Positions 27,830-49,255 of a stretch of DNA of 64,000 nt are shown piece by piece; within the stretch, counting starts at the first letter, position 1, and each line of letters starts with the position of its first letter. Both the position numbers and the translations under genes were made by a program. The stretch comes from Euglena gracilis (taxonomy: Eukaryota): positions 36,875,703 to 36,939,702 of the forward strand of contig CP154954.1 of NCBI GenBank assembly GCA_039621445.1, written 5' to 3'. The notes below the pieces were generated by a model. The model was not told where the DNA came from. It worked only from the letters and a program-made list of their open reading frames with translations, and made no database searches.

Positions 27830-28603
27830 ACCTCCCCCCCCCCAAGCCCAACGAACACCCTTGCCCAACGAACAGGGGGTGTTCGGACCGTCTAGACTGT
27901 CACCATATACTTTTTTTTGTGTTGGACAAGGAAATACTCATTTTTTTGCTGTTGTGAGGATGCCAGAGATTCTGATTCAGGTCACGGTATTGATTCCAGT
28001 CAGGTTTCCGGATTTGTGGGGGGGGTCGACCCCACCACCCCCTGCAAGACCCCCCCATCACACCTCCCAAACTTCAACATTTTCTCAAAATTTTGATTTT
28101 GCGAGTTTTTTTGAAACAAAAAATGCCATTGAAAGTCCAAAAAAATTTAAAAAAAAACGTCAGCAAAATTTGATTGTGCAAAAATTTGGTCCACTTTTTT
28201 TTGACCTTCGTTTTTTTTGACCCCCCCAAAAAACTACTAATTTTTAACCCTGATTTTTTGAGACTTTTTGTGAAAAAAAATGGTTTCCCATCAAAAAATC
28301 ATGTGTTTTGGGTTCGTTTTTTCAAAAAAAGATTCAAAAAATTTTCTGGCTAACATCCCCATTTTCCCGAAGTCGGTGAAAATGCTGTGGTGGGTTGGTG
28401 GTCGACCCCCCCCACCTCCCGGGTGGGGGGTCGACCCCCCACCAGGCCTTCCCATTCTGCCCTGGCATGCACTGATTATGCACGTTTCAAGGCTACACTG
28501 AAAAGGTGACAGAATTAGTGAACACCCATGTCCAACGAACGCCCCCCGTTCGGACCGTCTAGGTTGTCACTTTAGTGTTCGTTGGGCTTGGGGGGGGGGA
28601 GGT
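27830..28603. mobile_element. TA-flanked MITE with a nested insertion
   Basis: TIR cctcccc...aagcccaacgaacac/gtgttcgttgggctt...ggagg, TA flanks. Confidence 0.7.
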
Positions 28604-30501: not shown

Positions 30502-30635
30502 GAGGTGGATTTGCTCGTCGACGCTTTTGATTACAATAAAGATGGAAAAGTTTCTTATTTGGAGTTCTGCAATGCCATCACCAATGGTCCTTGGACACCT
30601 CTGAATGTGCAGGAGCGCAAAGTTGAAAGCCTGAG
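30502..30635 (+). CDS. EF-hand protein exon 3 (EVDLLVDAFDYNKDGKVSYLEFCNAITNGPW...)
   Basis: ttgcag| and |gtcatt boundaries, canonical EF loop DYNKDGKVSYLE, 134 nt, phase 0 to 2. Confidence 0.9.
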
Positions 30636-33114
30636 GTCATTGTGCTCCCTCCCTTGCAGGTTAATGGGCAGGTTTGGGCACAATGAGGATCAGGCTTCTT
30701 TGGGGCTGGGTGGGTCCAGGGCCGTGCTCCCATGGAGGGCGGGTTGGGCCGGAGGCTCGGGTATGGGTCGAAATTTTTTTCGCTTCACATCATACGTACA
30801 TTCATAAGTTCATGCCTGAGCTTATTTGGAAAAACCGCTTAGACAACCCGATTTTCAGGGGGGTACCCCGGGGGGGGGTCATGCGCCGGCTGCAGTGAGT
30901 GGAGGGACCCCTCACTCCACTCCCCTGGGGTCTTAGAAAGAATCCTGACGAGGATGGGTAAATGCCAAAGTGGATGGGTCAGGACAATCACAATCCCACA
31001 TGTTCCTGTGGCACAAGGCCTGCATTTTACCATGGTTTGGATTTGGGGTTGCGGTTGGCGCTGACTGAACTTCTTCAGGGTAATTGTCTTCACCAGGGCG
31101 CGCTAAGCCAAAAGGGAACCCACCCCTGGGGGAGGGGGAGCCAGACCCAGTTCCACCCCTTGTCCAGCCAGGTGGGGATTCGCCCCAATGTGTTTATTTG
31201 CACGCCCAATCCACCAGGGCAAATTTTGGAAAGGACAACATGAAAGACTACAGCAAATTTTTTCGGCTGCAGCAAATTCCGTGTGAGGTCAGTGGGGGGG
31301 CATTGCTTAACCCCCCCCACTTATAAACCCCCCGGGGTTAGTAGGATCCGGTTTGGTTGGTCGGCCGAAGGGGGGGGGGTTAGTAAGTGGGGGGTTTATA
31401 AGTCCCGGAATTGTTGGTGAAAATCCGAACCTCAAAAATGACCCCGAAACCCCCCAAAATGGCAATTTTTGGCAAAATTTGGTCAAAATGGCATTTTTGA
31501 TTATGGTCGATCTCAAAAAAGGGCCAAAAATCAGTTTTTGGGTGGTTTGAGGCAAAAAAAATCGTCCCCGGCGGCTTTCATTTTCCTTCCCCGAAGGGGG
31601 GGTTTATAAGTCCCGGTTTGGTTGGTCTGCCTGAGGGGGGGTTAGTAAGTGGGGGGGTTAGTAAGTGGGGGGGGGTTAGTAAGTGGGGGGGTTTAGTGTG
31701 TCCCAGCCGAGGGTCATTTGCGATTTTTGAACAATTGCCCATGTCGTTTTCCATTTCCAAAAAACCAGGCAGAAATTTTTTTGAAAACCAGTCAGTCATT
31801 TTTTGCCCTCTCTCCTTTTGACTCCTGCCCCACCCCATCCTGCTCATGACCAGGCTTCAATTTGTCGTAAATCAGCCCACCGGCCCAGCCAGACCCCCCC
31901 TCCTCCCCCTCCTCCTCTTGGTCCCTTTTCGTTCCGGCAGGAGCGATTTTCGGCCTAAGTCTCCTCCAGCACAAATTTCCTTACCCAAAGAAATGGTTTT
32001 GGCTGGGGTCCCGGATTTTGGATCATTTTGGGACCCCCAAAAAATGCAAAGAAAAAAGAGCAAAGCCCAATTGTGGCGCCAGGTGGCAGGCTGGGGAGCC
32101 GGGGGCGATTTCCCCCTCCCCCAAAATAGGCCCACAAGTCCATTTTGCCATTACTTCTGGCCGCCTTTCAAGAAAAATTCAGCACAAAGCGCCAAAAAAT
32201 TTTTTTCAGCTGGACCGACAAACCCAGACCCAGTTGGGACCCCCCGGGTATGCTCAGTCTGGACCATACCATTGATTTAGGCGTGTCTGACCCCACTCCC
32301 TGGGGGTGACCGATTCTTTCGAGTGACTGACTGGTTTTTGGCTCCAGACCCTCCTGGGGGTGGGGTAGGCCAGAATTGGCCAGGATTGGCCAAAAGTGGT
32401 CACTCATCGCCGAAGGCGCCGGAAAATTTTTGGGGGTTTTGTTCAAAATACATTGATTTTGAGCCATTTTGGCCGAGTGGCCAAAGTGACCCTTGGGGGG
32501 GGGGGTGGGAAGTGGGTGACTGGTTTTTGAAAGTGACTGGCTTGATTTTTTGACAGTGGAATTCTTCATCGTTTACTGAAGGCTTTAATTTAAGGCCCCA
32601 ATTCAACCCAAAGTACCCCCAGTGACATGATTTTTAAAGTTTCAAAGCATGTTACTGGGGGTACTTTGGGTTTATTTGGGGTTTCACCAGCAACTCCCGA
32701 TTATATAGGGGCCTGAAAACATTTTGGGGTTTATAAACCAAAATTATTTGGTTTATAAACACACAACAAAAAGTTGCGAGCACACCCTCAAATAAATCGG
32801 TGCGCACTTATTAGGCAAAGCACTCTTTTTCAATTTTTCCCTTCTTGTGATGTCAAGTAAATGACCCGAGTGATTATGTGTCAAACTTGGGCTTGGACAA
32901 TGGAAATATTTCTGTTCAGTTCTGAGAATTGTGTGTGCTTTCCGACCTGAGATGTGACAGTGATTTCTTCTTTGGGAGTGCGCACTTTTTAAGGAGGTAG
33001 TTTCGGACCCTTGGGGTGCTGTTGGCTGTTGTTAGAGCTTGTTAGGGCACTGCGCACTTGTCAGGGGGGGGGGGTGGTTGAAAGCCCACCGATGGTTCAT
33101 CCAGGAAAAATAAG

Positions 33115-34158
33115 AATTTTTTGGGTTGGTATAACAAGTTTTGAACAGAAATCTCCACTTTGTAAAAAGTGAACATTTGGGGGGGGGGTAGGAGGTGCAC
33201 AACGAAGAATTGGTATAAAATCAGTGTTTCACCACAGTTGTTTGTAAACACCAACCAGAAATTTTTTTTCTGGTGGTGTTTACAAACGTCGTTGGTCTTC
33301 AACTGTTCAACTGTGGTGAAACACCAATTTTATACCAATTCTTCGTTGTGCACCTCCTATTCATTCACGGCCCCATCCCTGGGGGTGTTGAAATTTGCTT
33401 GGAATTTGTTTGAGTTGAAATTGAAATTTGCTACACAAATTTCATCGTTTTGACACGTCCATCAAGGGCAGGTTTTATCATATGCAGTTGCCCAATCAAA
33501 AAAACTCTTCAAAAAAACTAATCTAAAAAAATTCAAACACAAAGCACAAAAAACGTGACACTGTTTTGGAGGCAACACATCTCCCCTTGGCAGGGAAGGT
33601 CAGGACGCTTCCCTGATCCCAGTCCTGGCTCCAGACTTTTTTGGGTGGGTATGACAAGTTGTGAACAGAAATATCCACTTTGGAAAAAGGGGGGGGGGGG
33701 GAGGAGGTGCACAACGAAGAATTGGTATAAAATCAGTTTCACCACAGTTGAACAGTTGAAGACCAACGAAACACCAACCAGAAAATTTTTTTTTGGTGGT
33801 GTTTACAAACGTCGTTGGTCTTCAACTGTTCAACTGTGGTGAAACACCAATTTTATACCAATTCTTCGTTGTGCACCTCCTATTCATTCACGGCCCCATC
33901 CCTGGGGGTGTTGAAATTTGCTTGGAATTTGTTTGAGTTGAAATTGAAATTTGCTACACAAATTTCATCGTTTTGACACGTCCATCAAGGGCAGGTTTTA
34001 TCATATGCAGTTGCCCAATCAAAAAAACTCTTCAAAAAAACTAATCTAAAAAAATTCAAACACAAAGCACAAAAAACGTGACACTGTTTTGGAGGCAACA
34101 CATCTCCCCTTGGCAGGGAAGGTCAGGACGCTTCCCTGATCCCAGTCCTGGCTCCAGA
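33115..34158. repeat. Tandem duplication of about 520 bp, each unit with an internal hairpin
   Basis: 33283-33635 is essentially identical to 33803-34158. Inverted repeat aggaggtgcacaacgaagaattggtataaaat. Confidence 0.9.
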
Positions 34159-35619
34159 CCATACCATTGCTTACCTACCCCAGGGGGGGGGGAGGGGGTC
34201 ACTGAAAGAGGCACACAGCTCAAGAACCAAACATTTGGGCCAAATTTGGGATGATAGATGATCCCTGGGGCTTTGTTTTGTCCCTGATCATTTCTTTTGG
34301 CTCTTTTTTTTCAGACCCTTCAAAGCTGGGGAGGAAAAGGGAAGGGGGAAAGTGAAATATCTTTTGGTAGGATGTTCCCACAGGCTTATTTTTTAAGTTG
34401 CTGGACATTTCCATTTTATTTATTTGTTCATTTTCCAGATATTTTGAAAACAAGACTTCTTGACACCAAAAATGGCCCGCAATGGTCCCCAAAATCGTCC
34501 AAACTGAGTTTTACAATGGCCATCCCTCGGGCCACGCTTGTGTTTAGTGCAACCGGAAAAATGGCTGTTGGCTGAACCGTGGCAAAATTTTCGTTGCGTG
34601 CCGAGTGTGCCGTGGCAATTTCGAAAGTACGCCGCAACCACGGCGCTGTCACATTTTTTAACATTCAGCATTCGACAAGAAAAACTCTGGTAAGAACTTC
34701 TGTGCCACGTCCACCGTGACTGAAAAGAGTTGCTGTACCCCGACCTCTGTGAAATATCTTTTTGCGCTGTGGCAAGCGCTGCGGTGCACTCACTGCAAGT
34801 ATGCTGCGACATTTGCAGAGGGATTTTTCTTCTGTTGCAAGGATTTCAATTTAAGTTTGTCATTGGCGAATTTTCCTTTTATTTTAAAGGAGCCCAGTGA
34901 TCTCATCCCATTCCCTTACACACCTTACCCTTTCCCTTTGTAAATAAATTTAACCTGAACCCCACCTTCACTCATTAGGCTGATATGGGTGGGGAAGTTA
35001 ATTTCTGAGGGGTTCAAATGGGGGGGGCATTATCAGGTTGGGGTCAATCACCTCAAAATAGGGCATCAGTCCATCGTGCGAGCGGCTCAGGGAGCTTGTC
35101 ACTGACTGTTGTTGTGGTTCAAAATCAAGACCAGAGGCAATTGCAGAAAGCTTGGTGGAAGAAATACGGGGGGTTTTGCTATTGAGAGGATGACATCGCT
35201 GTTTGACCCCCCCCCCCCCGCCCAGAAGCAACGTCCATTGCTTGATCTTCTTGAAAAGTGTGTAAGCAGTACCAAGACTATCGAACGCACACCACCGAAA
35301 TTTTTGGCAACCAATTTTCCTTTCAAATTTCCCCCAATCGCCCCCCGGGGTTGGGTTGTCCAAACATATCATCCGGGGGATATCAGTTGCGGGTTGCCCT
35401 TTCCAACTTCTGGCCTGGACATGTGGGCAATGGTTCTCAAGGATGTTCGAGATTAAAGTGGGAACGAGGCCAAAGTTGACAGGACAAATATATTTTGGTG
35501 AAATATGATTTTGGGGAATTCAGTTACAAATGTGATCATCCGAGGCCAGCGTTGGGTGAGATCTGTTCAGAGTGTACTGGGACTTCACATTTTGCTGCGA
35601 TTCATTTTGTTTCTTTCAG

Positions 35620-35657
35620 GCCGAAGGAGCAACGCACCCCAAGGAAAGTCTCTTGGC
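35620..35657 (+). CDS. EF-hand protein exon 4, linker PKEQRTPRKVSW; 3' boundary non-canonical and approximate
   Basis: Strong tttctttcag acceptor, phase 2 matches exon 3, followed by a 9-bp inverted repeat with 37015-37023. Confidence 0.55.
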
Positions 35658-37028
35658 TGCCAAACTGGCTGTTGATGATGGCGCGTGCAAATGTTCCTCA
35701 GTTGTTTTTCCCCAGCATTTTTCATTGATGATGAATTGAGCAACTCTCCCTCCACAGTGTGTTCGGCAGGTGCTCAATTAGTTGACTGATTTTTCCAACC
35801 AGGGAGATGGTCATTATGCATCCTGTATGGGCGGTTTTGTGCGAACATGGTTGCAAAAATTTGGTTGGCCCTTGAAAAAATTGAGGCTTTTTTCAGATCA
35901 TTACCACGCACCTCCGTTGCATTGCCGCCCGTATTTCTTTTCTTTGGAGGGATGCTCTCTTTGCATTGGATGTTGTCATGACAGCAGAGAAAACATCTTT
36001 TTTCGCAACACATTTTTTTTTATGCCGAAACCCTACCTCTGGTGGTCAGGGCTCTGCGGGAATCCCCGCAACCCTATTGTGGTGGGCGGCCATCCTGGTG
36101 GGTGGGGGGGACCCCCCACTATGCCTTCCCGTATTTCCGGCGCCAGGTCAAATTTTAGGTCAAATTTTCCTTTCAGTGCCAACGGTTCCGAAGGAATTTT
36201 TTTTTGCGCTGGTGCTGTGGTGGGGGGGGTCAACCCCCCACCTCCCGGGTGGAGGGGTGGAGGGGGTCGACCACCCCCTCACACCAGGCCTTCCCGTACA
36301 GCCCTGCAGGTGAGCATGGTGGAGGATGCAGATTTGCCTGCATTTTTGGGGGGTTTTGCTGTATATTGCTTGTTTTTTTTTTGGGGATTTTTTTATTATT
36401 ATTAACGACCACCCTGTTTCTCGGCAGGCTTCCCGACTGATAAAACTCCTCCAAAGAAGATGCTCTGCAGTTGATATTCGGGGAAAAATTAATTCAACGA
36501 AATTTTGATCGTCCCCAATACAACATGTTTTCCCATCCATTTTTGAGTTATCCGACTAATGACTTTGCAATTGGGGAGTTCCGAGACACCTGCACATTTC
36601 GCGTGTAGAGATGTGGGGTATTCTTCAGCTTTCTGTTGAATTGCCGTTTGTTAGAGCGGCCCTCACCTGGCTAGTTTTTCAAAAGCCACAAACGAGGAAG
36701 AAAGATCTCTCCACAACAATTTCCAGTCGATGTCCAAGGTCATTGGGAGGGAGGGGTTTAAAAAAACCCTAATAAATAAAATTTTATACACCATGCCACC
36801 CCCACCCCAAAGGGTTCCCAAAAATGCAAGCCCAAGGCCAAACAGACCGGTGCCAATAACTAAAACTGCAAAGTGCAGTCAACTTTAAGTCCCCACTTTT
36901 GGTTGCGCTCTTTCGTACAGAAGAGTTCCAAGCACTTTCTTGCCAGACTTTACACATTGCATTTGGGATTCCCCCAGCCATCCTCCTTCTGAAGTGGCAC
37001 ACCAATGCTTGCTGGCCAGTTTGACTGC

Positions 37029-37112
37029 CAACGAATGTGATTGACCCTGTGACAGCTTCAGTGAGGAGAATCCTCTTGCAGCTGAAGAAGCACCTTGAAC
37101 AGAACAATGAAA
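37029..37112 (+). CDS. EF-hand protein exon 5 (PTNVIDPVTASVRRILLQLKKHLEQNNE); 5' boundary non-canonical and approximate
   Basis: Homologous to exon 1, donor A|gtatgc in phase 1. An in-frame TGA at 37022 limits upstream extension. Confidence 0.7.
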
Positions 37113-37259
37113 GTATGCATTTGAGCGAGATCGTTGCCAGATTTTTTTTCTGGATGCAAAATTGCCCAGTATTTTTTGATGTGCATTTGTTGGTTTGACA
37201 TCTTAAGGTTCTGACCTGCCACCCAAGACTGTGACCTGCCTCTCAACGACCTCTTTCAG

Positions 37260-37366
37260 ATCTCAAGGGCGCTTTCCTGGCTTTGGATTCGAATCGTAGA
37301 GGCTGGTTGTCCAAGGCAGAGTTTGCGGCAGCTTTCAAAGACTTCCACTTCTCTATCACGCAGCAG
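37260..37366 (+). CDS. EF-hand protein exon 6 (LKGAFLALDSNRRGWLSKAEFAAAFKDFHFSITQQ)
   Basis: ctttcag| and |gtagcg boundaries, 107 nt, paralog of exon 2. Confidence 0.9.
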
Positions 37367-40300
37367 GTAGCGTAATTTGCATCTGCTGTTAGGGTGATTA
37401 TATAGGCGGAGGGCATTTTCATTAGGATTGAGGAAGGTTTGGTTTATCAGCTCAAAGCCCTGTATTCACTCATCCCTGGTGTGACCCCCACATGGGGGTT
37501 TTTGAGAGTGGGTGAGCGTGCAGTTGAAGGCCGGGTGGGAAGGGTTTCAAGGGTATTTGGCCAACTTTGGAGGTATTTGGGTTGTGCTCAACGAGGGGGT
37601 TGGGCTTTTCTTTTCAACTTGGAAGACCCCCCCCCCCCCCGAGGTCGAGGTCTGGGTATGGGAGGAGCCGAAATTTATGGTGTGAAGCAGTTTTCTATGC
37701 AGAAAAATGTCAAAAATATATCTCTGAAGTGCAAACGTTATACTCCACTCAACTTCAGGAAAGACCTCAGAAAATTTTTTTGATGTGAAATACAGCAGTA
37801 AATTTGTCGAAATTTGTTGAATAGCTGTCCATTTTGGGGAGCCAGCACCTCCTGCGACAAATCCTGAGTTGATACCCCCCCCAATTTCTGGCTCGGATTT
37901 TGAAGCGGAAGAATAGTACCCAGGGGGTATTATTTGGGGGGGGGTTAGTGAAAACAGCTCTCTATCAGGGTTTCGAGGCATGCATGTGTCTGTGCATGTG
38001 CGTGTGCATATGTTTGGGTGTGATATTATCCCCGATCCTGCACTGGGTGCTAGGTTTAGGGTTAGGATTGTGTGGCCAGAGAAGGGGCCTAACTCCCGTG
38101 ACCCATTCTCTTCTTAGCCTGGTCGGCAGGGGAAAAGAAAGATAAAGGCTTCCCAACAGTCGCCCGCACAAGGTCACCAGCCCCCAACTACGTCCAGCCC
38201 GAGTTGCCCGTTTTATTGGGCTCATGTAACAGGATCTCTCTGCCAGAAGGGCCCCAGCAAATGTGGAATCCTGAATTTTGGTTGCCTAAGCCTCTAAGAG
38301 GTTCTGTGGAGGCTGGTTTCCTGGGAGCCTCCGCGGCACACATCTCTTCAAGGTTTGCAGCAGAACTGGGGCTGCTGTAGCAGCCCTGATTTTGGCCCAG
38401 CCTAGCCGCAGCCCCCCCCCCCCCCCCGGGTGCTACTAGCTAGCTAGTTTGCAGCTAGCCAGTCCCCCGGGAACTGGATCGTCTGGATCATTTTGACCTG
38501 GCGACCATTTCAAGGGGTGACCCAACTGGATTGGCCAAGACAAAATTTTTGCGAGTGGATTGGTTTTGAGCATACCCTCAAAATATGTTATTGGTAATTT
38601 TATGGCATTTTTTTTGGACAATTGGATTGCACAATACAAATTTCCATGCACCCCCCATGTAAGGCCAGGTTTTTTGCGGTGATGAGCTTTACCTGCCTGA
38701 TGGTGCAATGAGCTGGCATTAACCCTGCAGACCGGCAGCACGGCCCGTCCAGGCCTGAATGCCACAGTGGCCTGGCCTGGCCCAGCCCGGCCCGACGGCG
38801 CAGCGTCCTGGCCCGGTGGCCCGGCCCGGGAAATCAAAATAACTTTAGATAGGGTTTCAATATTTTCTCCCCAGCAAGCATCTGGTCTGCAAGGGACGGG
38901 ATTTTTTTTCCCCATTGAGGACCGCCCTCAATGGCCACCCTTGGACTTAAGGGCCGGCCGGCCAAGGTCCGAACTGGGGCTTGAGCACGGTCGAAAATTG
39001 AAAAGTCGAGAAAAACACATTTTTTTTGTCGTTTTGGGTATGTCAATGGTCCAAGGCTCCCGATGTCGACCCACTTTCGCCAAAATAGGCCATTATTTGG
39101 CCCTTTTTTCTTGTGTATTTTGCGTTGAATGTGCTGGGACAGCAGAGTTTTTTTCTCTATTTCCTAAGGACCACCTGAGCAAATGTAGCTAAATTGCCTA
39201 AAATGGCCTAAAATGGTCCAAATGGCCTAAAATGCTTTAAAAATCCAAAATGGGCAAATTTTCGGCCTTGACCACATGTGCTTGGTCCCTGTGATTTCCT
39301 TTAACCCATTTCCATTTTGGGGTATTTTGATTTTTTTTGACCCCAAAGGACCAAACACGGCAATCTCAAAGCAGCCCAGTTCAGCATTCAGAGCAGGACA
39401 GCCATCATAATCCAGGGAAGCCGCTGGGAAAATGAAAATACCACAAGGTAGGGCGTTCCAAGGATTTCATTTGTGGTTGGTGGGTGGGGGGTCGCCCACC
39501 CACAATGCAGGCCTCCTGTGTTTCTAGAGGCGCCCATTTTTTAGGTCAGCATTTACTTCGGAGCCGAAGAGCCAATTTTTTTCTTGCACAGTGCTGTGGT
39601 GGGTGTGGGGGGGTCGAACCCCCCACCTCCCGGGTCGGGGGGGTCGATCCTCCCACCAGGAATTTTCGTGCAGCCCTGCATGGGGCTCCAGACCGACCTC
39701 GGGGAGGACACCCATGCCCCGCCAAAATATCAAAGATTTCCTTCCGGTGCCGCAAAATTTTGGCATTTTTGACAAATTTTGTCATCAATGCCCAAAATGC
39801 CATTGTTACTGATCATGGGAGTTGAATTTTTTTTGGACCAGCCTTTCGCACCTGGCTGAAAATCGATCACCCGAACCGCACCGTTGTTTAGAAGGATTGG
39901 GTGTCTGGCGATGCCGGCATCAAGAGCATGGTTGATCAGAGAGGGTTGGTGGGATGACCTCCCCTGCCTGGTGAGGGGTGCGGTCTGGCCTCACGCCACC
40001 TGGTATTTAGTGAAGGTTTTTTTTTGGTGTTCGGGTATCGAAGGAGTTTTTCTTTGTGCAGTTCCATCTTGGGTTGGGGGGTCGACCCCTCCTGCGTTTC
40101 ATTAAGTGATTGCCCTGGTCCAGCCACCCCTTGTTGGCCCTCAAGTGTGCGTCCCATACTGGATGGTGATCTTGATTTTTTTGGGTTTTTTTTTGGAATT
40201 TGTCTGCAACATTTTTTTTTTAAAAATTTGCTCTGTACCTCTAAATTTCCCAAAAAATATATCAGTGCTTATTTTGGATTTTTTTTATATCACTATTACC

Positions 40301-42527
40301 CATGATTGACAAGAAACTGCTTGCTTGTATGTTTAATTTCTCATGGTGCCAAGATGATGCGTACAATGATAGGTGCAGGGCCCCCAGGGGCTGGGAGCTG
40401 GACCTGGCCCCCAGCCCCAAAAGCCAAACCCCAGATTAAGCATTCTTCAGCCAAGGTGAAAAAACAAAAACCACCCGAAAAATGCCATTTTTTTGGCCAT
40501 GTTTGACCCCTTTTTCAAACGTTTTGGCGTTTTGTGCCGAATTTTTTTTCGGCCCAGCCCGGCTTCGCTGGGGTGGCTTGAACTTTATTTCAGCAGACCC
40601 TCCCCCCCCCCACAAGAGGGCTGCACTTTGCAGCCTGGCTGGGAGGAGCTGGCTGGAAAAAAGGTATTGGCTGGCTGGACCACCCTGCAGGAGCTGGGTC
40701 CCCTCCGGCTCAAGAAAACCCTGATTGGGTGCCACCACCCCAGGTGAAAATGCAGGCATTCACTGATTTTTTTTGGCATTCAGCCCTGTTGAACCTCCCC
40801 TTAATAAGTGCGCAGCACCATAATTATGTGCAGTGCCCTAACACGTTCGCACCCCCACAAGGGCCCGAAACTACCTCCCTAAAAACTGCACCCCCAAGGA
40901 GAAATCAAGTCACATCTCAGGTCGGAAAGCACACACAATTCTCAGAAATGTCCTTCTCAGGCAATTATTTCTATCATCCGAGCCCAAATTTGGCACATAA
41001 TCACTTGACTCATTGATTGACTTCACAAGAAGGGGAAAAACTGAAAAAGATTGGTGGAAAATTAGCTGTTTTGTGCTTTGCCCAAGTAAGTGCACAGTGC
41101 CCCAATAAGTGTGCACCCCTTGGGGTCCGAAAACTTCATCCTCAAAATGTGCGCACTACTTTTTAGGGGGGTATATCCCAGGGGGTGACATGTGGCCGTG
41201 TAAATATTCTCTTTCCCGAACTGCACCTGTTTTCGGCCAAATATTCCGAGTTTTCCCTCCCTTTTTGGTCGATCTTCAGTCGGATCCACTGAACAGGGGG
41301 GGGGGGTTGATGTTTGGCAGGAAACCAAAGAGGGGCTTGTATTTGGCGGGTGTTATTTTTGGGTGGTTCTGATTGGGGGGGTTCATCAAACCCTAGTTTA
41401 GGCCATTTGAGCAAGGCCAGAAATTCAGCCAAAATAGCATGGTTCCCCCGATCATACGTTGATGGATTGACACGATGGTAGAATGTGGGATAATATTATT
41501 TTGGGAGAGCAGGGAGGGTATTTAGGGAGTTATTTTTTTGTAAGGTCTACCGTACCAAGGTGAATAGGACACAAAGACTCTTCAAGCATTCGTTAGTGTG
41601 CAAAGTGCACACCCCCTCAACAAAGGCCAGCCTCTTGAAAACCTTGAACCGCATTTTACACATGCGTGTTGTGCGAGCAACACAGAAAATTGCAGATTGT
41701 TTTGTCCATGCCAAGAATTAGGTCTGTCCTCCTCCACCGTCAGTGATCCACCCAACTGGGCAGGGCTGTACGGGAATCTGCACAACCCTACAGGTGGTGG
41801 GGAGGGGTCGACCAACCCCCCCCCCCCTCTAGAAGGTGAATGACAATGAAAAAGGTACCATGCTTAATTTGAGTCTTTCCCCACCTCCACAAGGCCGACA
41901 TTTTTTAAGGAGTTTCACCCGTCGTCCCCCCGGGTGGGTGTTATGGGCAGGCAGGGAAGGGCATTTTTGACCCAGGTCGAGTTTTAGGGTGGGCAGTGCT
42001 ATAGCACATTCCCTGGTGCCAAAGACGCCGGGGCCCCAAAAATGGGGAAAGTTGGCTTGGTCGGCAGGCAACGGGTCCAAAGCCGGGGGGGGGGGTTGCC
42101 AACATGGGCAGGCACCCCTTGTTTGCGGTTTTTGTCTTTTTGTGTCTTTTTCTGCGTTGCATTCTGCGAGGGCCCCCGTCTTGTCTCCTGTCCGATGCAG
42201 TGATGGGCTTTGAATTGCTTGTGCCGAAGGGGGGGCCAAAGTGCTTTTCCCAAGCTGTTTAGGAACCCAAGTGCTCAATTATTTTGCATGTTTCAACTTC
42301 AACCTCTTTGTTTTTCCTTGTGGTTTTTTGAAATTTCCTCTTTTTCCTGGTGTGCATCGCACTTTGCAGGCCTTTGGTTAGACTTGCAAACATCTTTTGA
42401 ATCCCCCTCCCCATCGTGCAAAGCGCTGCAGTTGATTGCCAGCTCCTGAGAGACAAGGCACTTTTTTTGCAAGGGTATTTCTTTTTAATGTGAAACCAGA
42501 GATACCTCTCATTTGCCTCATCTGCAG

Positions 42528-42661
42528 GAGCTTGATTTGCTTATTGATGCGTTCGACAGCAATAAGGATGGCAAAGTGTCGTACCTGGAATTCTGCAACA
42601 CAATGGTGAATGGCCCCTGGGCTACGATGCAGTTTAAAGAGCCACCAATCACAGATCCAAA
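42528..42661 (+). CDS. EF-hand protein exon 7 (ELDLLIDAFDSNKDGKVSYLEFCNTMVNGPW...)
   Basis: ctgcag| and |gtacga boundaries, 134 nt, paralog of exon 3. Confidence 0.9.
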
Positions 42662-43096
42662 GTACGACGTGTTTTGCTGTTGCTGCTGCTGTTGCTGCTG
42701 AGGTGGGAATAATATTCCCCATCAGAATAGCCGAATTAGCTGAGTCTGTTTTTGATATCCCCAGTGTTTCATCAGAATAGCCGAAGCAGCTGAGTCTGTT
42801 TTTGATATCCCACTGTTCTCACAACTCTCTATTCAAACCGCTGTTTGGCATGTGAAGCAACACAAATCCAAATTCTCTGGCTGGGTAGGTGGGGGGACCC
42901 CTGGGGGCTCGAACAGAAGCCTTGACCCATCGCATTCAGCAGGGAGGAGGGAATATGCACCATGCAGTTTTTGCACTTTCTTTGCGTTTTCTTTGTGTTT
43001 TTTTTACAGAGGAAATTTCACTGAAGTGAAATGAAATGCATGGCACGGAGAGATGCATTTTTTGTCGTTATTTTTTTTGTTTTATTCACTCCACAG

Positions 43097-43165
43097 GATC
43101 CCTACAGTGCACAAAGTTCCTGACAATGAAGTGAGGTTGAATCTGCTCTTGCAGTCACTCCACAG
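43097..43165 (+). CDS. EF-hand protein exon 8 (IPTVHKVPDNEVRLNLLLQSLHR)
   Basis: ccacag| and |gtcagc boundaries, phase 2 to 2, resembles VLNRLHQDLRR in exon 13. Confidence 0.75.
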
Positions 43166-43260
43166 GTCAGCAGTGCCCGTCCATCGAAGTTGGGATATTC
43201 CCAACTTCGGACCCCCTGGGCAGGTGGGTCTGCCGGTGGGTCCCCCCCCCCCCGGGGGGT

Positions 43261-43871
43261 CAGGGCAGAACGGGAATCGGCCAAACAGCCAGGGTGGTGG
43301 GTGGGGGGGTGGTCGACCACCCTCCCCACCACCTCTTCCTGTATTTCCGGGAGCACCAATTTTTTGGACCCAAAATTTTTTCCCGGCGCCGAAAGAAAAA
43401 AAACCGAAGCCGAAGGCGCCGGGAGTTTTTTTTTTTTACCATTTTGGGACCCGTATGGGAGGTCCCCCCCAAAAACCCCTAAACCCCCATTTTTTCACAC
43501 CTTCCAAAATTTCAACATTTTTCTCAAAAAACTTTTTTAGAGGTTTTTGAAGCAAAAAAAATGTTATTGAATATCCAAAATTTTCCAAGAGAAAAAATGT
43601 CAGTAAAATTTGCGTGTGCCAAAATTTGGTCCATTTTTTTGACCTTCGTTTTTTTCAGCCCCTCCTAAAAACCACCAATTTTTAAACCTGAAAATTTGAG
43701 ATTTTTTTTGTGAAAGAAATGTGGTTTTCCATCAAAAAATCATGCTTTTTGAGTTCATTTTTCAAAAAATTTCCCCAGCCAACATCCCCGTTTTCCCAAA
43801 GTTGGTGAAAATGCTGTGGTGGGTGGGGGGGGTCGACCCCCCCCCCCACCAGGCTTTCCCATTCTGCCCTG
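43261..43871. mobile_element. MITE with CAGGGC ends; relatives near 28000-28463 and 36047-36306
   Basis: TIR CAGGGCAGAACGGGAA/TTCCCATTCTGCCCTG; TSD not conserved. Confidence 0.75.
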
Positions 43872-44924
43872 CTGGGGATGCTCCCCCTAACTAACTAAAG
43901 TGGAGTATGTGCCTGGCACCTGGTGGCCGGCGTCGTAAACAAGGTAAGTCCCGCCAGGCTCCGGCCACCTCCACGTACACAGACAAAACGGGCCAGAGGT
44001 GAAAAACAGCGCCAGGCCAGAAGAAGGGATAAAATGCGCCAAACAAAAAGCCACAGTGCACGCAGGGTACCCCCAAGGGTCTTGTGGGTCCCCCGCCAGA
44101 GGCAGGGTTTGGACTTTTTTGGCTTTTTTTTTCGGCACAAAGTGCCAGTAAATTTTTTGACCCAAAAATTGACCCCTCAACAATTGGGTCCCCAGTTTGA
44201 TTGCCAAAACGAGCAGAACCAGGTGGAAATGGTGGAAGTGGGAAAATGGCCGGAAACGGGCTGCCCAGCTCAAACTTTGGCAATGAACATATTTCTTTTG
44301 GCGTCTTGCCGATGTTTGGGCCTTTTTGCAGTTTCTGGTTTCTGGACCCAGTTCCACCCCAGGGAATTTTAGCCAGGGAATCACATATGGGAGGCAAGCA
44401 CCTCTGATGATGCTGGGCGATGCTGGGCGATGCAGGGCGATGCTGGGCGATGCTGGGCGATGCTGGATTTTTGGAGACCAGAGGTGGGGTTCCGATGCTG
44501 GGTGATGCTGGGCGATGCAGGGCGATGCTGGGCGATGCTGGGCGATGCTGGCATTTTTTTTGTATATTTTGGAGAATTGAACCATTTTTGGGATAATTTT
44601 CCCAAAATCACCAAAAAGGCGCAAAATGGCTAAAAATGCCATAAAATCTGCTCAAAAAGGCCCCAATTAGCCCAATGTTTGCCAAATCAGTGATAAATAG
44701 CCCCAAATTAGCAAAAATTGACCCATAATGGCCAAAATGGGTGTCAAACTGGAGCTTTGTGGGTCATTTTTCACAATCTTTTGTGGACATTGTTGGCATT
44801 TTTGGGCAATTTTTGGTTATTTTGGTTGTTCTTTGGGGGCTTTTTGTGGTCAATTTTGGGCTTTTTGTGGCCATTTTTGGAGTTTTTGTGGTTAATTTGG
44901 CTTGGTCAGGAGCCAACGGATGAA

Positions 44925-45420
44925 TACTGGACAGATGCTGGACAAGATGCAGATGCTGGACAAGATGAACTGGATGCAGGCACTGGACAAGATGCAGATG
45001 CTGGACAAGATGAACTGGATGCAGGCACTGGACAACATGCAGATTCTGGACAAGATGCCGATGCTGGACAAGATGAACTGGATGGCAGGCACTGGACAAG
45101 ATGCAGATGCTGGACAAGATGCCGATGCTGGAAAAGATGCAGATGCTGGACAAGATGCAGATACTGGACAAGATGCAGATACTGGACAAGATGAATTGGA
45201 TGCAGACACTGGACAACATGCAGATGGTGGACAAGATGCAGTTGCTAGGCAAGAAGCAGATGCTGGACAAGATGCAGATGCTAGACAAGATGCGGATACT
45301 GGACAAGATGCAGATGGACAAGATGCAGATGCTGGACAACATGCAAATGCTGTACAAGATGCAGACACTGCACAAGATGCAGATGCTGGACAAGATGCAA
45401 TGAGACAAGACGCAGTGGAT
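44925..45420. repeat. 18-bp minisatellite (GATGCTGGACAAGATGCA)n
   Basis: Degenerate tandem array. Confidence 0.9.
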
Positions 45421-45564
45421 GCACGCTGTTGCTGTTGCAAGGGTGCCACCCTCCACCCTCCGGCACAACAACTGTTTTGGATTTTGTTTGTCTGACCGGC
45501 AAGAGACTTGCAACTTGCACTCGATGTTGCCATCTCACAGGCCTGCAACACATCCTGTGCTGGC

Positions 45565-46010
45565 AAAAAGCAGCAAAAGTGGTCAAAAAGTGGTCAAAAA
45601 GCAGGCACAAGTGGGGTAAAAGTGGTCAGAAAGTAGCAAAAGTGGTAAAAAGGTGGGCAAAAGTGGTCAAAACGCAGCAAAAGTGGGCAAAAAAGTGAAA
45701 GTGATCAAAAAGCAGCAACAGTGGCCAAAAGTGGGCAAAAAGCAGGGTCGAAAAGCAACAAAAGTTGTCAAAAGTGGTCAAAAAGCAGGCGAAGGGGCCA
45801 AAAGTGGTCAAAAAGCAGCAAAAGTGATCAAAAAGCTGCAAAGGTGGTTGGATATGGGCAAAAGTGGGCAAAAAGCAACAAAAGTGGTCAAGAAGCAGTC
45901 AAAATTGGTCAAAAGGCAGCAAATGTGGGCAAAAGTGGTCAAAAAGCAGTCAAAAAAGTGGTCAAGTGGTCAAAAAGCAACCAAAGATGGCCAAAAGTAG
46001 CCAAAAGTGG
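45565..46010. repeat. Degenerate 10/20-bp tandem repeat (AAAAGTGGTC/AAAAGCAGC)
   Basis: Tandem array inside the hAT-like element. Confidence 0.85.
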
Positions 46011-46200
46011 GCCAGAGCGGCAAAAACAGCAGGCATTATAGGTACACCTTCAAGGGCTCCAAAGGCGATGCTGGGCGATGCTAGGCGATGCTGAGCGATG
46101 CTGGGCGATGCTGGGCGATGCTGGGCGATGCTGGGCCCAAGGGCATAGCTGACCAGAGGTGCTTGATGGGAGGGAACGGCTGGCTGGCTACTTTTCCGTC

Positions 46201-46230
46201 ATTTGTGTTCCAACGTATTGGGACATTGAA
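46201..46230 (+). CDS. EF-hand protein micro-exon 9 (FVFQRIGTLK); no AG at the expected 5' boundary
   Basis: Consensus donor AA|gtaagt in phase 2. Aligns without gaps to FTSSRFGTNK in exon 13. Confidence 0.6.
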
Positions 46231-46759
46231 GTAAGTGAGAGTTGGTTTTGCACGGTGGGGGTCAGACCCCCCGGGGTTCCAGACCCTCTCCGTCCTGCTT
46301 TAGATTCGGGAGGGGGGGTCCCTGGAACCCAGAAAGTTTTTCTCTGGGGCAAACATAATTTTCTATTTTTTGCCTTCTTTCAAGGGTGCTAAATATACCT
46401 TTTCGCCTTTTTTTTCCAGCCCAAAAAGATTTTTTTTTTGGCAATTTGTTTTGTACAGGAGGAGGGGTAGGGAAGTCCCGAACCCCCTCCTCCCCATTGG
46501 GGTGGGGTGGCTTTTTTGAAGTGTTAAAATCCAGGCAAAAAACAGCTCAGTATTTCGGAAAGGATGATTAAAGTTGGATGTTTTCATTTTGACTAGACAA
46601 AAGCCTTTTTGCGGGAATGTCCCAAATGTACGTCCAAGAAGCATAATGAACAGAAGTTTGCTGAAGGGCCCACATTTTGGGACATACCCAAAGATGCCCA
46701 AGCAGGGTGTCTCTTAAGCCAAGTTTGCATTTTCTGTTTCTTTTTCTAAAAATTGGCAG

Positions 46760-46793
46760 GGATACACTGCCTCAGGATGAAAGACAGACAGGA
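46760..46793 (+). CDS. EF-hand protein micro-exon 10 (DTLPQDERQTG)
   Basis: ggcag| and |gtttgt boundaries, phase 2 to 0 bridges its neighbours, supplies the DxxxxG half-loop. Confidence 0.5.
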
Positions 46794-48020
46794 GTTTGTT
46801 TTTTGTGTTGGAATTCGCTGTAGAATCTTTTTTGGCACTGGTCCAAATCATTGGTATCCGACATTTTCATTCTGGTACCTTGTGCCTGGGTCATGTGATG
46901 CAATCCTTCCTGACTTCCCAGCACAACACATCCGTACGGGGGGGGGGGGGCAGGGTTGGTTCCCAGGGTGACCCAGGGAATATTGGTCAGCAAAGATCCA
47001 TCTAATTGACCCGATTAGGATTTCAGCGCAAAATCCACGGCTCAATCCATCCATCCAGTCTCAACTCTCTTCCCTTTGCTAGGTTTTCAAATGAATCAAC
47101 TGTTGTCTCCACTGGTTGGGTTTCCTCAGGGCTTTGGAGCAGCGATTCCAAACAGTGCAGGAGGCGTTCATTCACCTCGATAAGAATCGTTCTGGCCTCA
47201 TCAGCGCCCAGGAGCTGATTGGCATTCATGGAGGAAATCACTTCCATGATGCCATGATTTGTTTTGTTCGATTTGTTTTGAGTCAAGTTTAGCTTTGAAG
47301 CATTGAGAATTCATTACGGCTGGGAAAAAGGACGGAAACGTCCTTAAGCAATGGCATTGTTTGGCAAGGTAATTAAATTAATGAAAAATTTGGTAAGACC
47401 TCCCAAATATTCAAGGGATTTTGCCCAATTTTAACCTCCTGCCCAAAGTGTTAAGTGTACGGCAGTTTTGCGGGGGAGGGGGGTCAGACCACCCCCTCCC
47501 CAGAGGGGTCCAGACCCCCCCGCTCCTGCCGCACTCCTGTGAAGGGAATCAAACACGGCAGAAACCCACAAATTTCCTCCAGACAGAACATATATTTGGA
47601 CAAAATGACTGGCACAGCAAAATCAAAGCGAGTTTTCAATTTCAATTGAAACATCCAAAATTCGATGAATTTAGAATTATGTAAAAATCCACATCTTGGG
47701 ATCTTTTTAAGTTTGAAAGTTTGCGCGCAACAAAGTGATTTTAATGGCATAATTCAAGCTCAGATAAAGCAATGTCATTTTCTCCCGCGCTATAAATCAG
47801 CCGACTCATTTATAAGAAAGTGGCTACAAGAGAACACATTGGTCAACATATGTAGTGCCCAGATTTTTTAAAAAAAATAAAATTTGATGGTGCAAAAATT
47901 TGGCACCCCGCCAAGTGATAGCGAGGGGGGGGGGGCATTGTTGAAGGGACTGCACTTCCAGAGCAGTTGGGGGCAGGTTTTTCTGCTGGGTGAAGAACAC
48001 CCAAGGCTACCACCCTACAG

Positions 48021-48155: not shown

Positions 48156-49255
48156 TCCTGATTGGGCTGTTTTGTTACTTTCTGAGGATATCAATCTTTG
48201 GCAAATGGAGCACACACGGACTAGACACAAGCTGCACACGCACACGCTTGCATGCGCACGCGCGCGCACGCACACTTGCGCAAACTCACATCCATGTGCA
48301 TAAATGCATGTGGACGTGTGTGCACACGTGCGCATTTGAACGCAAACACACATTTAGGTGCCGGCAAAGACACTCACAACCATCAGCCAGCCACCCACCC
48401 ACCCACTCATTTGCTACCCCCCCCAGGGTTGTTCAGAAGCTCCGCAGACATGAGGGTGGTGGTAGGGGGGGGGTCACCCCCCCTCCAGGGGGGTAAGGTG
48501 GTGGGGGGGTCCCCCACCCCCCCTCCTCCTCTGCGAGAGCAAAAAAAAATTCCTCCGGCGCTTCGCACCGGGTGTGTACTTTAAGACCCTCTTGAGTCTC
48601 AACATGGAATTTTGGCAAAATGGCCCAAATTGGCCGAAAAATGGCCGTAACTTGGGATGGGCGGGGAGTTGCGTGGAAATCAAAATACTTTTAGACAGGG
48701 CATTTTAAGGGCTTCAATTTAGGTCTCGAACATTTCCTTTGTTCCCCACCGTTTTTGAGAAATTTCAGAAAAATCGACCTTTTGATCCCAAAAAACGACC
48801 GAAATTTTCGGTGACCGAAAGCTGGAGGTAGGAGGGGGGTCGGTCCCCCCCCCTCCGAGATTCCCACACAACTCTGCCCCTCCCCCCCGGCGCTTGGCCC
48901 CACTCCTTCTTGCATGCAAATTTGCCCCCTAAAGTTTGGCCTTCGGCCTTTTGCACATGGCCGCCAAAATTTTCAACGTGCAAACTTGGCCCCCATAAAA
49001 TTGGCCCAGTATTAAGTGAGCGGTGGTTTTGCAGGGGGGGCACCCCCTCCTCCCCCCCCAAACCAAGGGGGGTCTGGGAACCCAAAAAAAATTCCGGCGC
49101 GAATAGCTGGAAACGATGAAAATTTTGGTGTGCATTTTGACCGATTTTTCAAGAAGGTGCAGGAAAACGCGACTTTTGGGCCATTTTCAAGGCCGACAAA
49201 AATTTTCAAGGTAAAAATTTACAAAACTTTTTATGAAGGTAGCTTTTTGAATTCA

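Follow-up and report, generated by a model that had tools for sequence, protein, structure and literature searches.

Where does the sequence between two short exons of a Euglena multi-EF-hand gene begin and end, and is it removed from the pre-mRNA as a conventional GT-AG intron or as one of the nonconventional introns known from euglenids? The question arises near the middle of the window analysed here, by which we mean the whole 64-kb stretch of Euglena gracilis DNA (64,000 nt), and all positions given below are positions in that window. Left unspliced, the reading frame meets a stop (ORF 35480-35728 terminates at TGA). An earlier note, made from the letters alone, had read a candidate non-GT-AG intron at 35658-37028 (1,371 nt) whose ends were thought to form a stem in the geometry of euglenid nonconventional introns.

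Gene structure

The region is eukaryotic, with short exons lying between long, repeat-rich introns on the plus strand. The gene is that of a multi-EF-hand protein, and EF-hand pair modules recur along its exons. A single match to the Pfam EF-hand family PF00036 passed its threshold (26.1 bits, cut-off 25.4); the other EF-hand Pfam matches stayed under their cut-offs, as expected from single exons. The features of the gene are as follows.

30636-35619, plus strand: GT-AG intron, 4,984 nt, with a loose end before 35618
35620-35647, plus strand: micro-exon …PKEQRTPRK, 28 nt, placed by reads and contigs
35648-37036, plus strand: nonconventional intron, 1,389 nt, ends GT..AT, placed by the RNA joint
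35653-35670, plus strand: 5' arm of the terminal helix, from the repeat search, the pair table and the whole-intron minimum free energy (MFE) fold
36096-36313, no strand assigned: dispersed G-run/C-run repeat within the intron, holding all five non-self blastn matches of the region
37014-37031, plus strand: 3' arm of the terminal helix, from the same three sources as the 5' arm
37037-37112, plus strand: exon VIDPVTASVRRILLQLKKHLEQNNE, the helix preceding an EF-hand, placed by contig pieces and by its match to the relative P0001
37070-37081, plus strand: conventional-looking acceptor (pyrimidine run and CAG) inside the exon 37037-37112, unused in the dominant mRNA
37113-37259, plus strand: GT-AG intron, 147 nt, with the joint 37112->37260 in 80 reads of run X12 and 47 reads of run X16
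37367-42527, plus strand: GT-AG intron, 5,161 nt, with the joint 37362->42524 (cut +4) in 81 reads of X12 and 54 reads of X16
42662-43096, plus strand: GT-AG intron, 435 nt, between contig pieces 42524-42661 and 43097-43166
43166-47129, plus strand: GT-AG intron once its borders are slid along a CAGG repeat, with a loose end behind 43166

The end of the exon upstream of the first of these introns was placed at 30604-30633 from loose ends, and the exon following the last intron was located at 47131 in the same way. Once their borders are shifted along short repeats, the other five introns found for the gene are without exception GT-AG. At positions 35625, 37333, 42590, 42593, 42650 and 43157, a second base occurred in about 35-45% of the raw RNA reads, which suggests two expressed alleles or near-identical gene copies.

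The intron borders in RNA

RNA data from four studies were aligned with positions 34300-44400: the contig sets X1 and X3, and the raw reads of the RNA-seq runs X12 and X16. The dominant junction was 35647|37037, by which 1,389 nt are removed in frame, and it was found in all four RNA runs.

X1, contig set, joint 35647->37037: 1 contig, depth 1233.6
X3, contig set, joint 35647->37037: 1 contig, depth 486.1
X12, raw RNA-seq, joint 35647->37037: 18+17 reads, 31 starts
X16, raw RNA-seq, joint 35647->37037: 31 reads, 14 starts

One contig spans this junction together with three further joints of the gene (37112|37260, 37362|42524 and 42661|43097). In addition, 18 reads of X12 and 16 reads of X16 had loose ends at 35649 whose letters match those from 37039 onward. 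Raw-read depth over 35648-35984 was 0-0.16, compared with means of 2.1-5.3 in the preceding bin, which holds the 28-nt exon. These data show that cutting and rejoining of the pre-mRNA at 35647|37037 is essentially complete. The reads of X16 were confined to one strand, and this agrees with RNA from the plus strand, provided that the library was stranded in the common way. RNA mapping had been proposed in the earlier note as a check on its intron, and what it yielded is a spliced transcript with a non-GT-AG junction, at other coordinates than those it had predicted.

Could the joined form be an artefact, produced by template switching of the reverse transcriptase at a short repeat or read from a copy of the gene, allelic or paralogous, without the segment? 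The same junction appeared in RNA from all four studies and in assembled contigs, and its read support, after allowing for the 28-nt exon, is about that of the neighbouring GT-AG junctions. It is true that a 2-nt repeat (GT) sits at the junction, and that positions 35639-35649 and 37028-37038 form an imperfect repeat matching at 9 of 11 letters; yet the stop that the unspliced frame meets speaks against such an origin. The second variants in the exons, present at about 40% (e.g., 35625 and 37333), imply at least two alleles or copies, a point in favour of such an origin, but both exonic variants gave the joined form in the RNA data. Since no intron-retaining reads were seen, every expressed copy gives this form. 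We therefore regard an artefact as very improbable. An apparent T>A change at 37036 was also considered as possible editing, and it was rejected as the product of junction reads aligned straight through the border (…GGAAA versus …CGAAT).

The junction leaves the border of the intron free to slide by up to 2 nt. Three placements, referred to as A, B and C below, yield the identical mRNA, and the placement of the cut is therefore indistinguishable from mRNA.

Placement A, 35648-37036, plus strand: ends GT..AT, with 5 and 5 unpaired nucleotides outside the helix on the 5' and 3' sides
Placement B, 35649-37037, plus strand: ends TC..TG, with 4 and 6 unpaired nucleotides
Placement C, 35650-37038, plus strand: ends CT..GT, with 3 and 7 unpaired nucleotides

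None of the three has GT-AG or GC-AG borders or an AG at its 3' end, and the last 25 nt of the intron before 37036 are devoid of a pyrimidine tract. The view that the intron is not GT-AG was thus correct, and so was the accompanying remark that a TGA (37022-37024) lies in frame with the downstream ORF, with no AG from there to 37037.

The interval 35658-37028 itself was not borne out. It had been built on an exon ending in ...RKVSW and a next exon resuming at 37029 with PTN through a W-P-T-N junction, whereas in RNA the exon stops after ...RK at 35647 and the following one starts at 37037 with VIDP. Although 1,371 nt would also keep the frame, and the perfect 9-bp repeat core that guided this choice is real, a joint 35657->37029 was absent among the 15 best-supported of 30 joints. 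Raw depth of 0.04-0.16, against 2.1-5.3 in the preceding bin, moreover places 35650-35657 essentially outside the mRNA. The chance that this register is the one in use appears negligible; as the main form it is refuted, and a rare isoform is possible.

A conventional alternative would start at the same GT (35648) and use the pyrimidine run and CAG at 37081, removing 1,434 nt in frame. This form, which the earlier note had itself set against its proposal, is not the one seen in RNA: contigs and reads run continuously over 37037-37081 with the junction at 37037, and no joint 35647->37082 occurred among the 15 best-supported of 30 joints. Its use as the main form is refuted by these data, with a minor isoform possible.

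The junction at the protein level

Across the junction the spliced protein has the sequence …PRK|VIDPVTASV…, and the length of the intron is 3 × 463. When one 44-aa exon was used as the query of a protein search, 2 of 3 candidate proteins were matched, one of which (P0001) is 77% identical over this exon. Aligned with P0001, the spliced product stays collinear through 216 residues, interrupted by a single 1-residue gap next to the junction. Exon 37037-37111 alone matched P0001 with 14 of 21 residues identical (E = 4e-07).

This comparison bears on both of the alternative introns. The form 35658-37028 would add six residues and leave the protein with a 7-residue excess over P0001. The GT-AG form 35648-37081 would delete 15 conserved residues, and with them the helix preceding the EF-hand, from an exon that agrees with P0001 at 14 of 21 aligned positions, and we give it hardly any probability at all. 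Both the RNA and the relative are in accordance with the junction 35647|37037.

In the second repeat unit of the gene, an uninterrupted …HKVPD… stands at the position of RK|VID in unit 1. As unit 2 is unbroken here, the intron position is not common to the paralogous units. Intron positions were seen to differ between the two EF-hand-pair modules, and the relatives P0001 and P0002 share the module order.

The terminal helix

The repeat search found an inverted repeat at 35653-35669 and 37015-37031 (17 nt, 88% complementary, with a perfect 9-bp core). That core had been noted before from the letters, and it was confirmed: CAAACTGGC at 35661-35669 is perfectly complementary to GCCAGTTTG at 37015-37023, two G-U pairs follow it (35670-37014 and 35671-37013), and a CTGCCAA direct repeat lies at 35657-35663 and 37025-37031. 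According to the pair table and the MFE fold, the stem seen there joins the real ends of the intron.

We then scored the pairing between the first and the last 30 nt of the intron, whose ends were set by the RNA and thus independently of the helix, and obtained a duplex energy of -25.3 kcal/mol. For three GT-AG introns of the same gene, the corresponding energies were -15.5, -9.3 and -2.7 kcal/mol. Values as low as that of the intron were reached by 12 of 5000 shuffles and by 69 of 5000 random pairs taken from the window at the same spacing; the latter, positional controls show that equally strong helices are no great rarity in a window so rich in repeats. The MFE fold of a 1,409-nt stretch (the intron with 10 nt on each side) retained the helix, with 24 end-to-end pairs. 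Together, these results show that the intron ends are able to form a helix of at least 17 base pairs. The local fold of 35640-35690 was unremarkable (z-score 0.53), and the structure that matters is long-range rather than this local one.

In the test of Gao et al. 2024, in which 10 nt, U7 and 10 nt are folded together, nonconventional introns are reported to range from -10 to -2 kcal/mol (PMC11170887). Placement 35648-37036 gave -7.0 kcal/mol, which is within that reported range, while three GT-AG introns of the gene gave 0.0, -1.2 and -1.7 kcal/mol. Relative to the base of the helix, the splice sites are situated 3-5 nt further out on the 5' side and 5-7 nt further out on the 3' side.

Pairing register and splicing code

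The three placements differ in how they fit the published features of nonconventional introns, among them a preference for pyrimidine|purine at each junction and for a purine opening the downstream exon. In A, B and C, respectively, the 5' junction reads A|G, G|T and T|C and the 3' junction T|G, G|T and T|G, so that the first base of the downstream exon is T in placement B and G in the other two. Placement A fits the border preferences best, with a purine starting the intron, a pyrimidine ending it and a purine starting the next exon, and in it the helix is two positions off the published register. That register was described by Milanowski et al. 2016, who reported +5,+6/-8,-7 as paired in all of 55 sequences, +7/-9 as mostly G/C (31 of 55) and +4/-6 as unpaired in just 1 of 55 (PMC4770533). 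The pairs +5/-7 and +6/-8 are matched by placement 35649-37037 only: in placement B, T53-A31 falls on +5/-7, T54-A30 on +6/-8 and G55-C29, a G-C pair, on +7/-9. In the same placement, however, +4/-6 is a C.C mismatch and all four purine/pyrimidine border preferences fail; the MFE fold here pairs 35652 with 37033 and leaves 37032 bulged. No single placement satisfies both the border preferences and the helix register.

A splicing code of the form 5'-N3CDG-/-CH'GN5-6|R has been defined genetically by Nomura et al. 2025 and, according to the same source, is carried by 61.2% of the nonconventional introns of E. agilis (PMC12501133). The present intron does not carry it, since positions +4..+6 read TCT, CTT or TTG in placements A, B and C. 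It is thus in the minority of nonconventional introns without the CAG/CTG (CDG/CH'G) motif. With only 61.2% of nonconventional introns carrying it, the code is not definitive of the whole class.

A CTG/CAG pair does exist within the helix (35665-35667 and 37017-37019), where it is truly paired and unused as a ruler. A motif-only scan for CDG...CH'G returned many chance combinations, none of them at the observed junction, and among these only 35662..37024/37025 has triplets that pair in the helix. The intron 35662-37024/37025 that would be predicted from this paired CTG/CAG was rejected: its removal would break the frame and leave a downstream exon starting with C or T, and the RNA did not show it. 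Similarly, the earlier note had put CAA/TTG at +4..+6/-8..-6, but this triplet sits mid-helix, and the positions that fit, provided that the borders are set at 35649/37037, lie at the base of the helix, 8-10 nt outward on either side. Its assignment to the euglenid nonconventional class was right, and its coordinates were wrong, the borders lying about 10 bases further out. A rule that works from sequence alone with '+4..+6/-8..-6' may thus misplace borders by about 10 nt where the helix is long. RNA evidence is needed, and for placing the border it is the triplet at the base of the helix that counts.

Class of the intron and its possible mode of removal

Taken as a whole, the evidence makes us confident that the multi-EF-hand gene on the plus strand contains here a nonconventional intron of the euglenid type, 1,389 nt long (35648-37036, or the same span moved by 1-2 nt). 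It resembles the nonconventional introns described from E. gracilis and E. agilis (Milanowski 2014/2016, Gao 2024, Nomura 2025) in several respects. Its borders are not GT/GC-AG, its terminal inverted repeats can pair and would juxtapose the junctions, a pyrimidine tract is missing, and the border can slide along a short direct repeat. GT-AG introns are present in the same gene, a mixture of conventional and nonconventional introns that has been described as common (PMC12501133), and the position is absent from the paralogous repeat unit. If the borders are 35649/37037, the published register is reproduced as well (+5/-7, +6/-8 and the G-C pair at +7/-9). Unlike 61.2% of the nonconventional introns of E. 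agilis, it has no CAG/CTG motif; it also differs in being mismatched at +4/-6 in that register and in leaving the CTG/CAG inside its helix unused as a ruler.

Because one placement begins with GT, the intron falls in the intermediate/nonconventional subtype (Canaday et al. 2001, as cited in PMC4770533), with which it shares one canonical border (5' GT, placement A) and a stable end-to-end structure. It differs from a plain member of that subtype in that the GT belongs to one of three equivalent placements, and Milanowski et al. 2016 argue that intermediate/nonconventional introns are not a distinct type (PMC4770533). Noncanonical introns of hemistasiid diplonemids are reported to be likewise without GT-AG and to have their ends joined by extensive pairing (PMC12621601), a likeness that weighs against the euglenid assignment.

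We infer that the removal of this intron is non-spliceosomal. In the mechanism that we envisage, the terminal helix would bring the two junctions together, and nonconventional machinery rather than the U2 spliceosome would cut within the few unpaired nucleotides at the foot of the helix and ligate the exons. Judging from the literature, the intron would probably be removed after the GT-AG introns and released as a circle: nonconventional introns are reported to be spliced out after conventional ones (PMC6221363) and to appear as full-length circles (Gumińska et al. 2021, cited in the review PMC11282704). In our data, a backward joint of a circular intron was not found among the 15 best-supported of 30 joints, and unique intron sequence had no reads.

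The main competing explanation is that the spliceosome itself uses the GT at 35648 with a 3' site other than AG (AT at 37035-37036), while the helix does no more than draw the odd acceptor near. Placement A does begin with GT, and the mechanism of nonconventional splicing is stated in the literature to be unknown, with the spliceosome possibly involved (PMC11282704, PMC11170887). However, the 5' end GTCTC fits the E. gracilis consensus GTGTG (PMC11170887) at 3 of 5 positions, and a GT at this end is ascribed by Milanowski et al. 2016 to the purine preference and not to kinship with conventional introns (PMC4770533). The 3' end offers neither an AG nor a pyrimidine tract. A pyrimidine-rich CAG acceptor lies 45 nt downstream, a strong conventional site that would keep the frame if joined to this GT and that is ignored. 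Spliceosomal removal is accordingly improbable in our estimation, and nonconventional removal remains our preferred reading.

The intron has no CDG/CH'G code, its paired CTG/CAG is ignored, and the cut is fixed a few nucleotides outside a long helix. From these observations one might speculate about a second mode of recognition, in which the machinery would use the end of the helix as its structural ruler in code-less introns, about 39% of Euglena nonconventional introns, instead of reading the triplet; we hold this to be unlikely rather than probable and offer it tentatively. The intron is spliced efficiently without CDG/CH'G beside an unused conventional acceptor, which makes it a handy test case for the code-less class. 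Nonconventional introns are reported to make up 71.8% of the introns in E. agilis, with a comparable share in E. gracilis (PMC12501133), and since they are the majority class in Euglena, a further example is in itself ordinary.

Repeats and other features of the window

A transposon origin has been proposed for nonconventional introns (PMC4770533, PMC11282704), and the present intron shares with MITE-derived introns, or introners (PMC11282704), the terminal inverted repeats and an imperfect direct repeat resembling a target-site duplication (TSD). The direct repeat in question, 35639-35649 against 37028-37038 (found by eye, with no chance estimate), spans the junctions. It overlaps the 3' arm of the helix by 4 nt, so there is no clean layout of TSD and terminal inverted repeat. 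Also unlike MITE-derived introns, the arms have no second copy in the 64-kb window, where they matched only each other (2 matches at up to 3 mismatches); at least 2 arm matches were also obtained in 7 of 100 shuffles. The only dispersed repeat in the intron is the interior G-run/C-run element, which is distinct from the arms. A transposon origin of the intron thus has no support within the window. An Rfam search of the whole window at the gathering threshold gave 0 matches, and no snRNA or SL RNA.

Copies of the G-run/C-run repeat, with palindromic GGGGGG..CCCCCC cores, were seen near 28383-28464, 39478-39680, 43821-43878 and 48459-48521, in several introns. RNA contigs make chimeric joints at these repeats, probably via copies elsewhere in the genome. 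Within the 4,984-nt upstream intron, 33166-34254 consists of roughly two tandem copies of a unit of about 523 bp, with ORFs repeating at 33414/33937 and 33462/33985. The intron 43166-47129 contains, at 44409-46136, closely packed tandem arrays whose periods are 10, 18-20, 45 and 87. The segment 12001-14000 differs from the rest of the window in its composition, with a GC content of 0.62 and an AT skew of +0.34.
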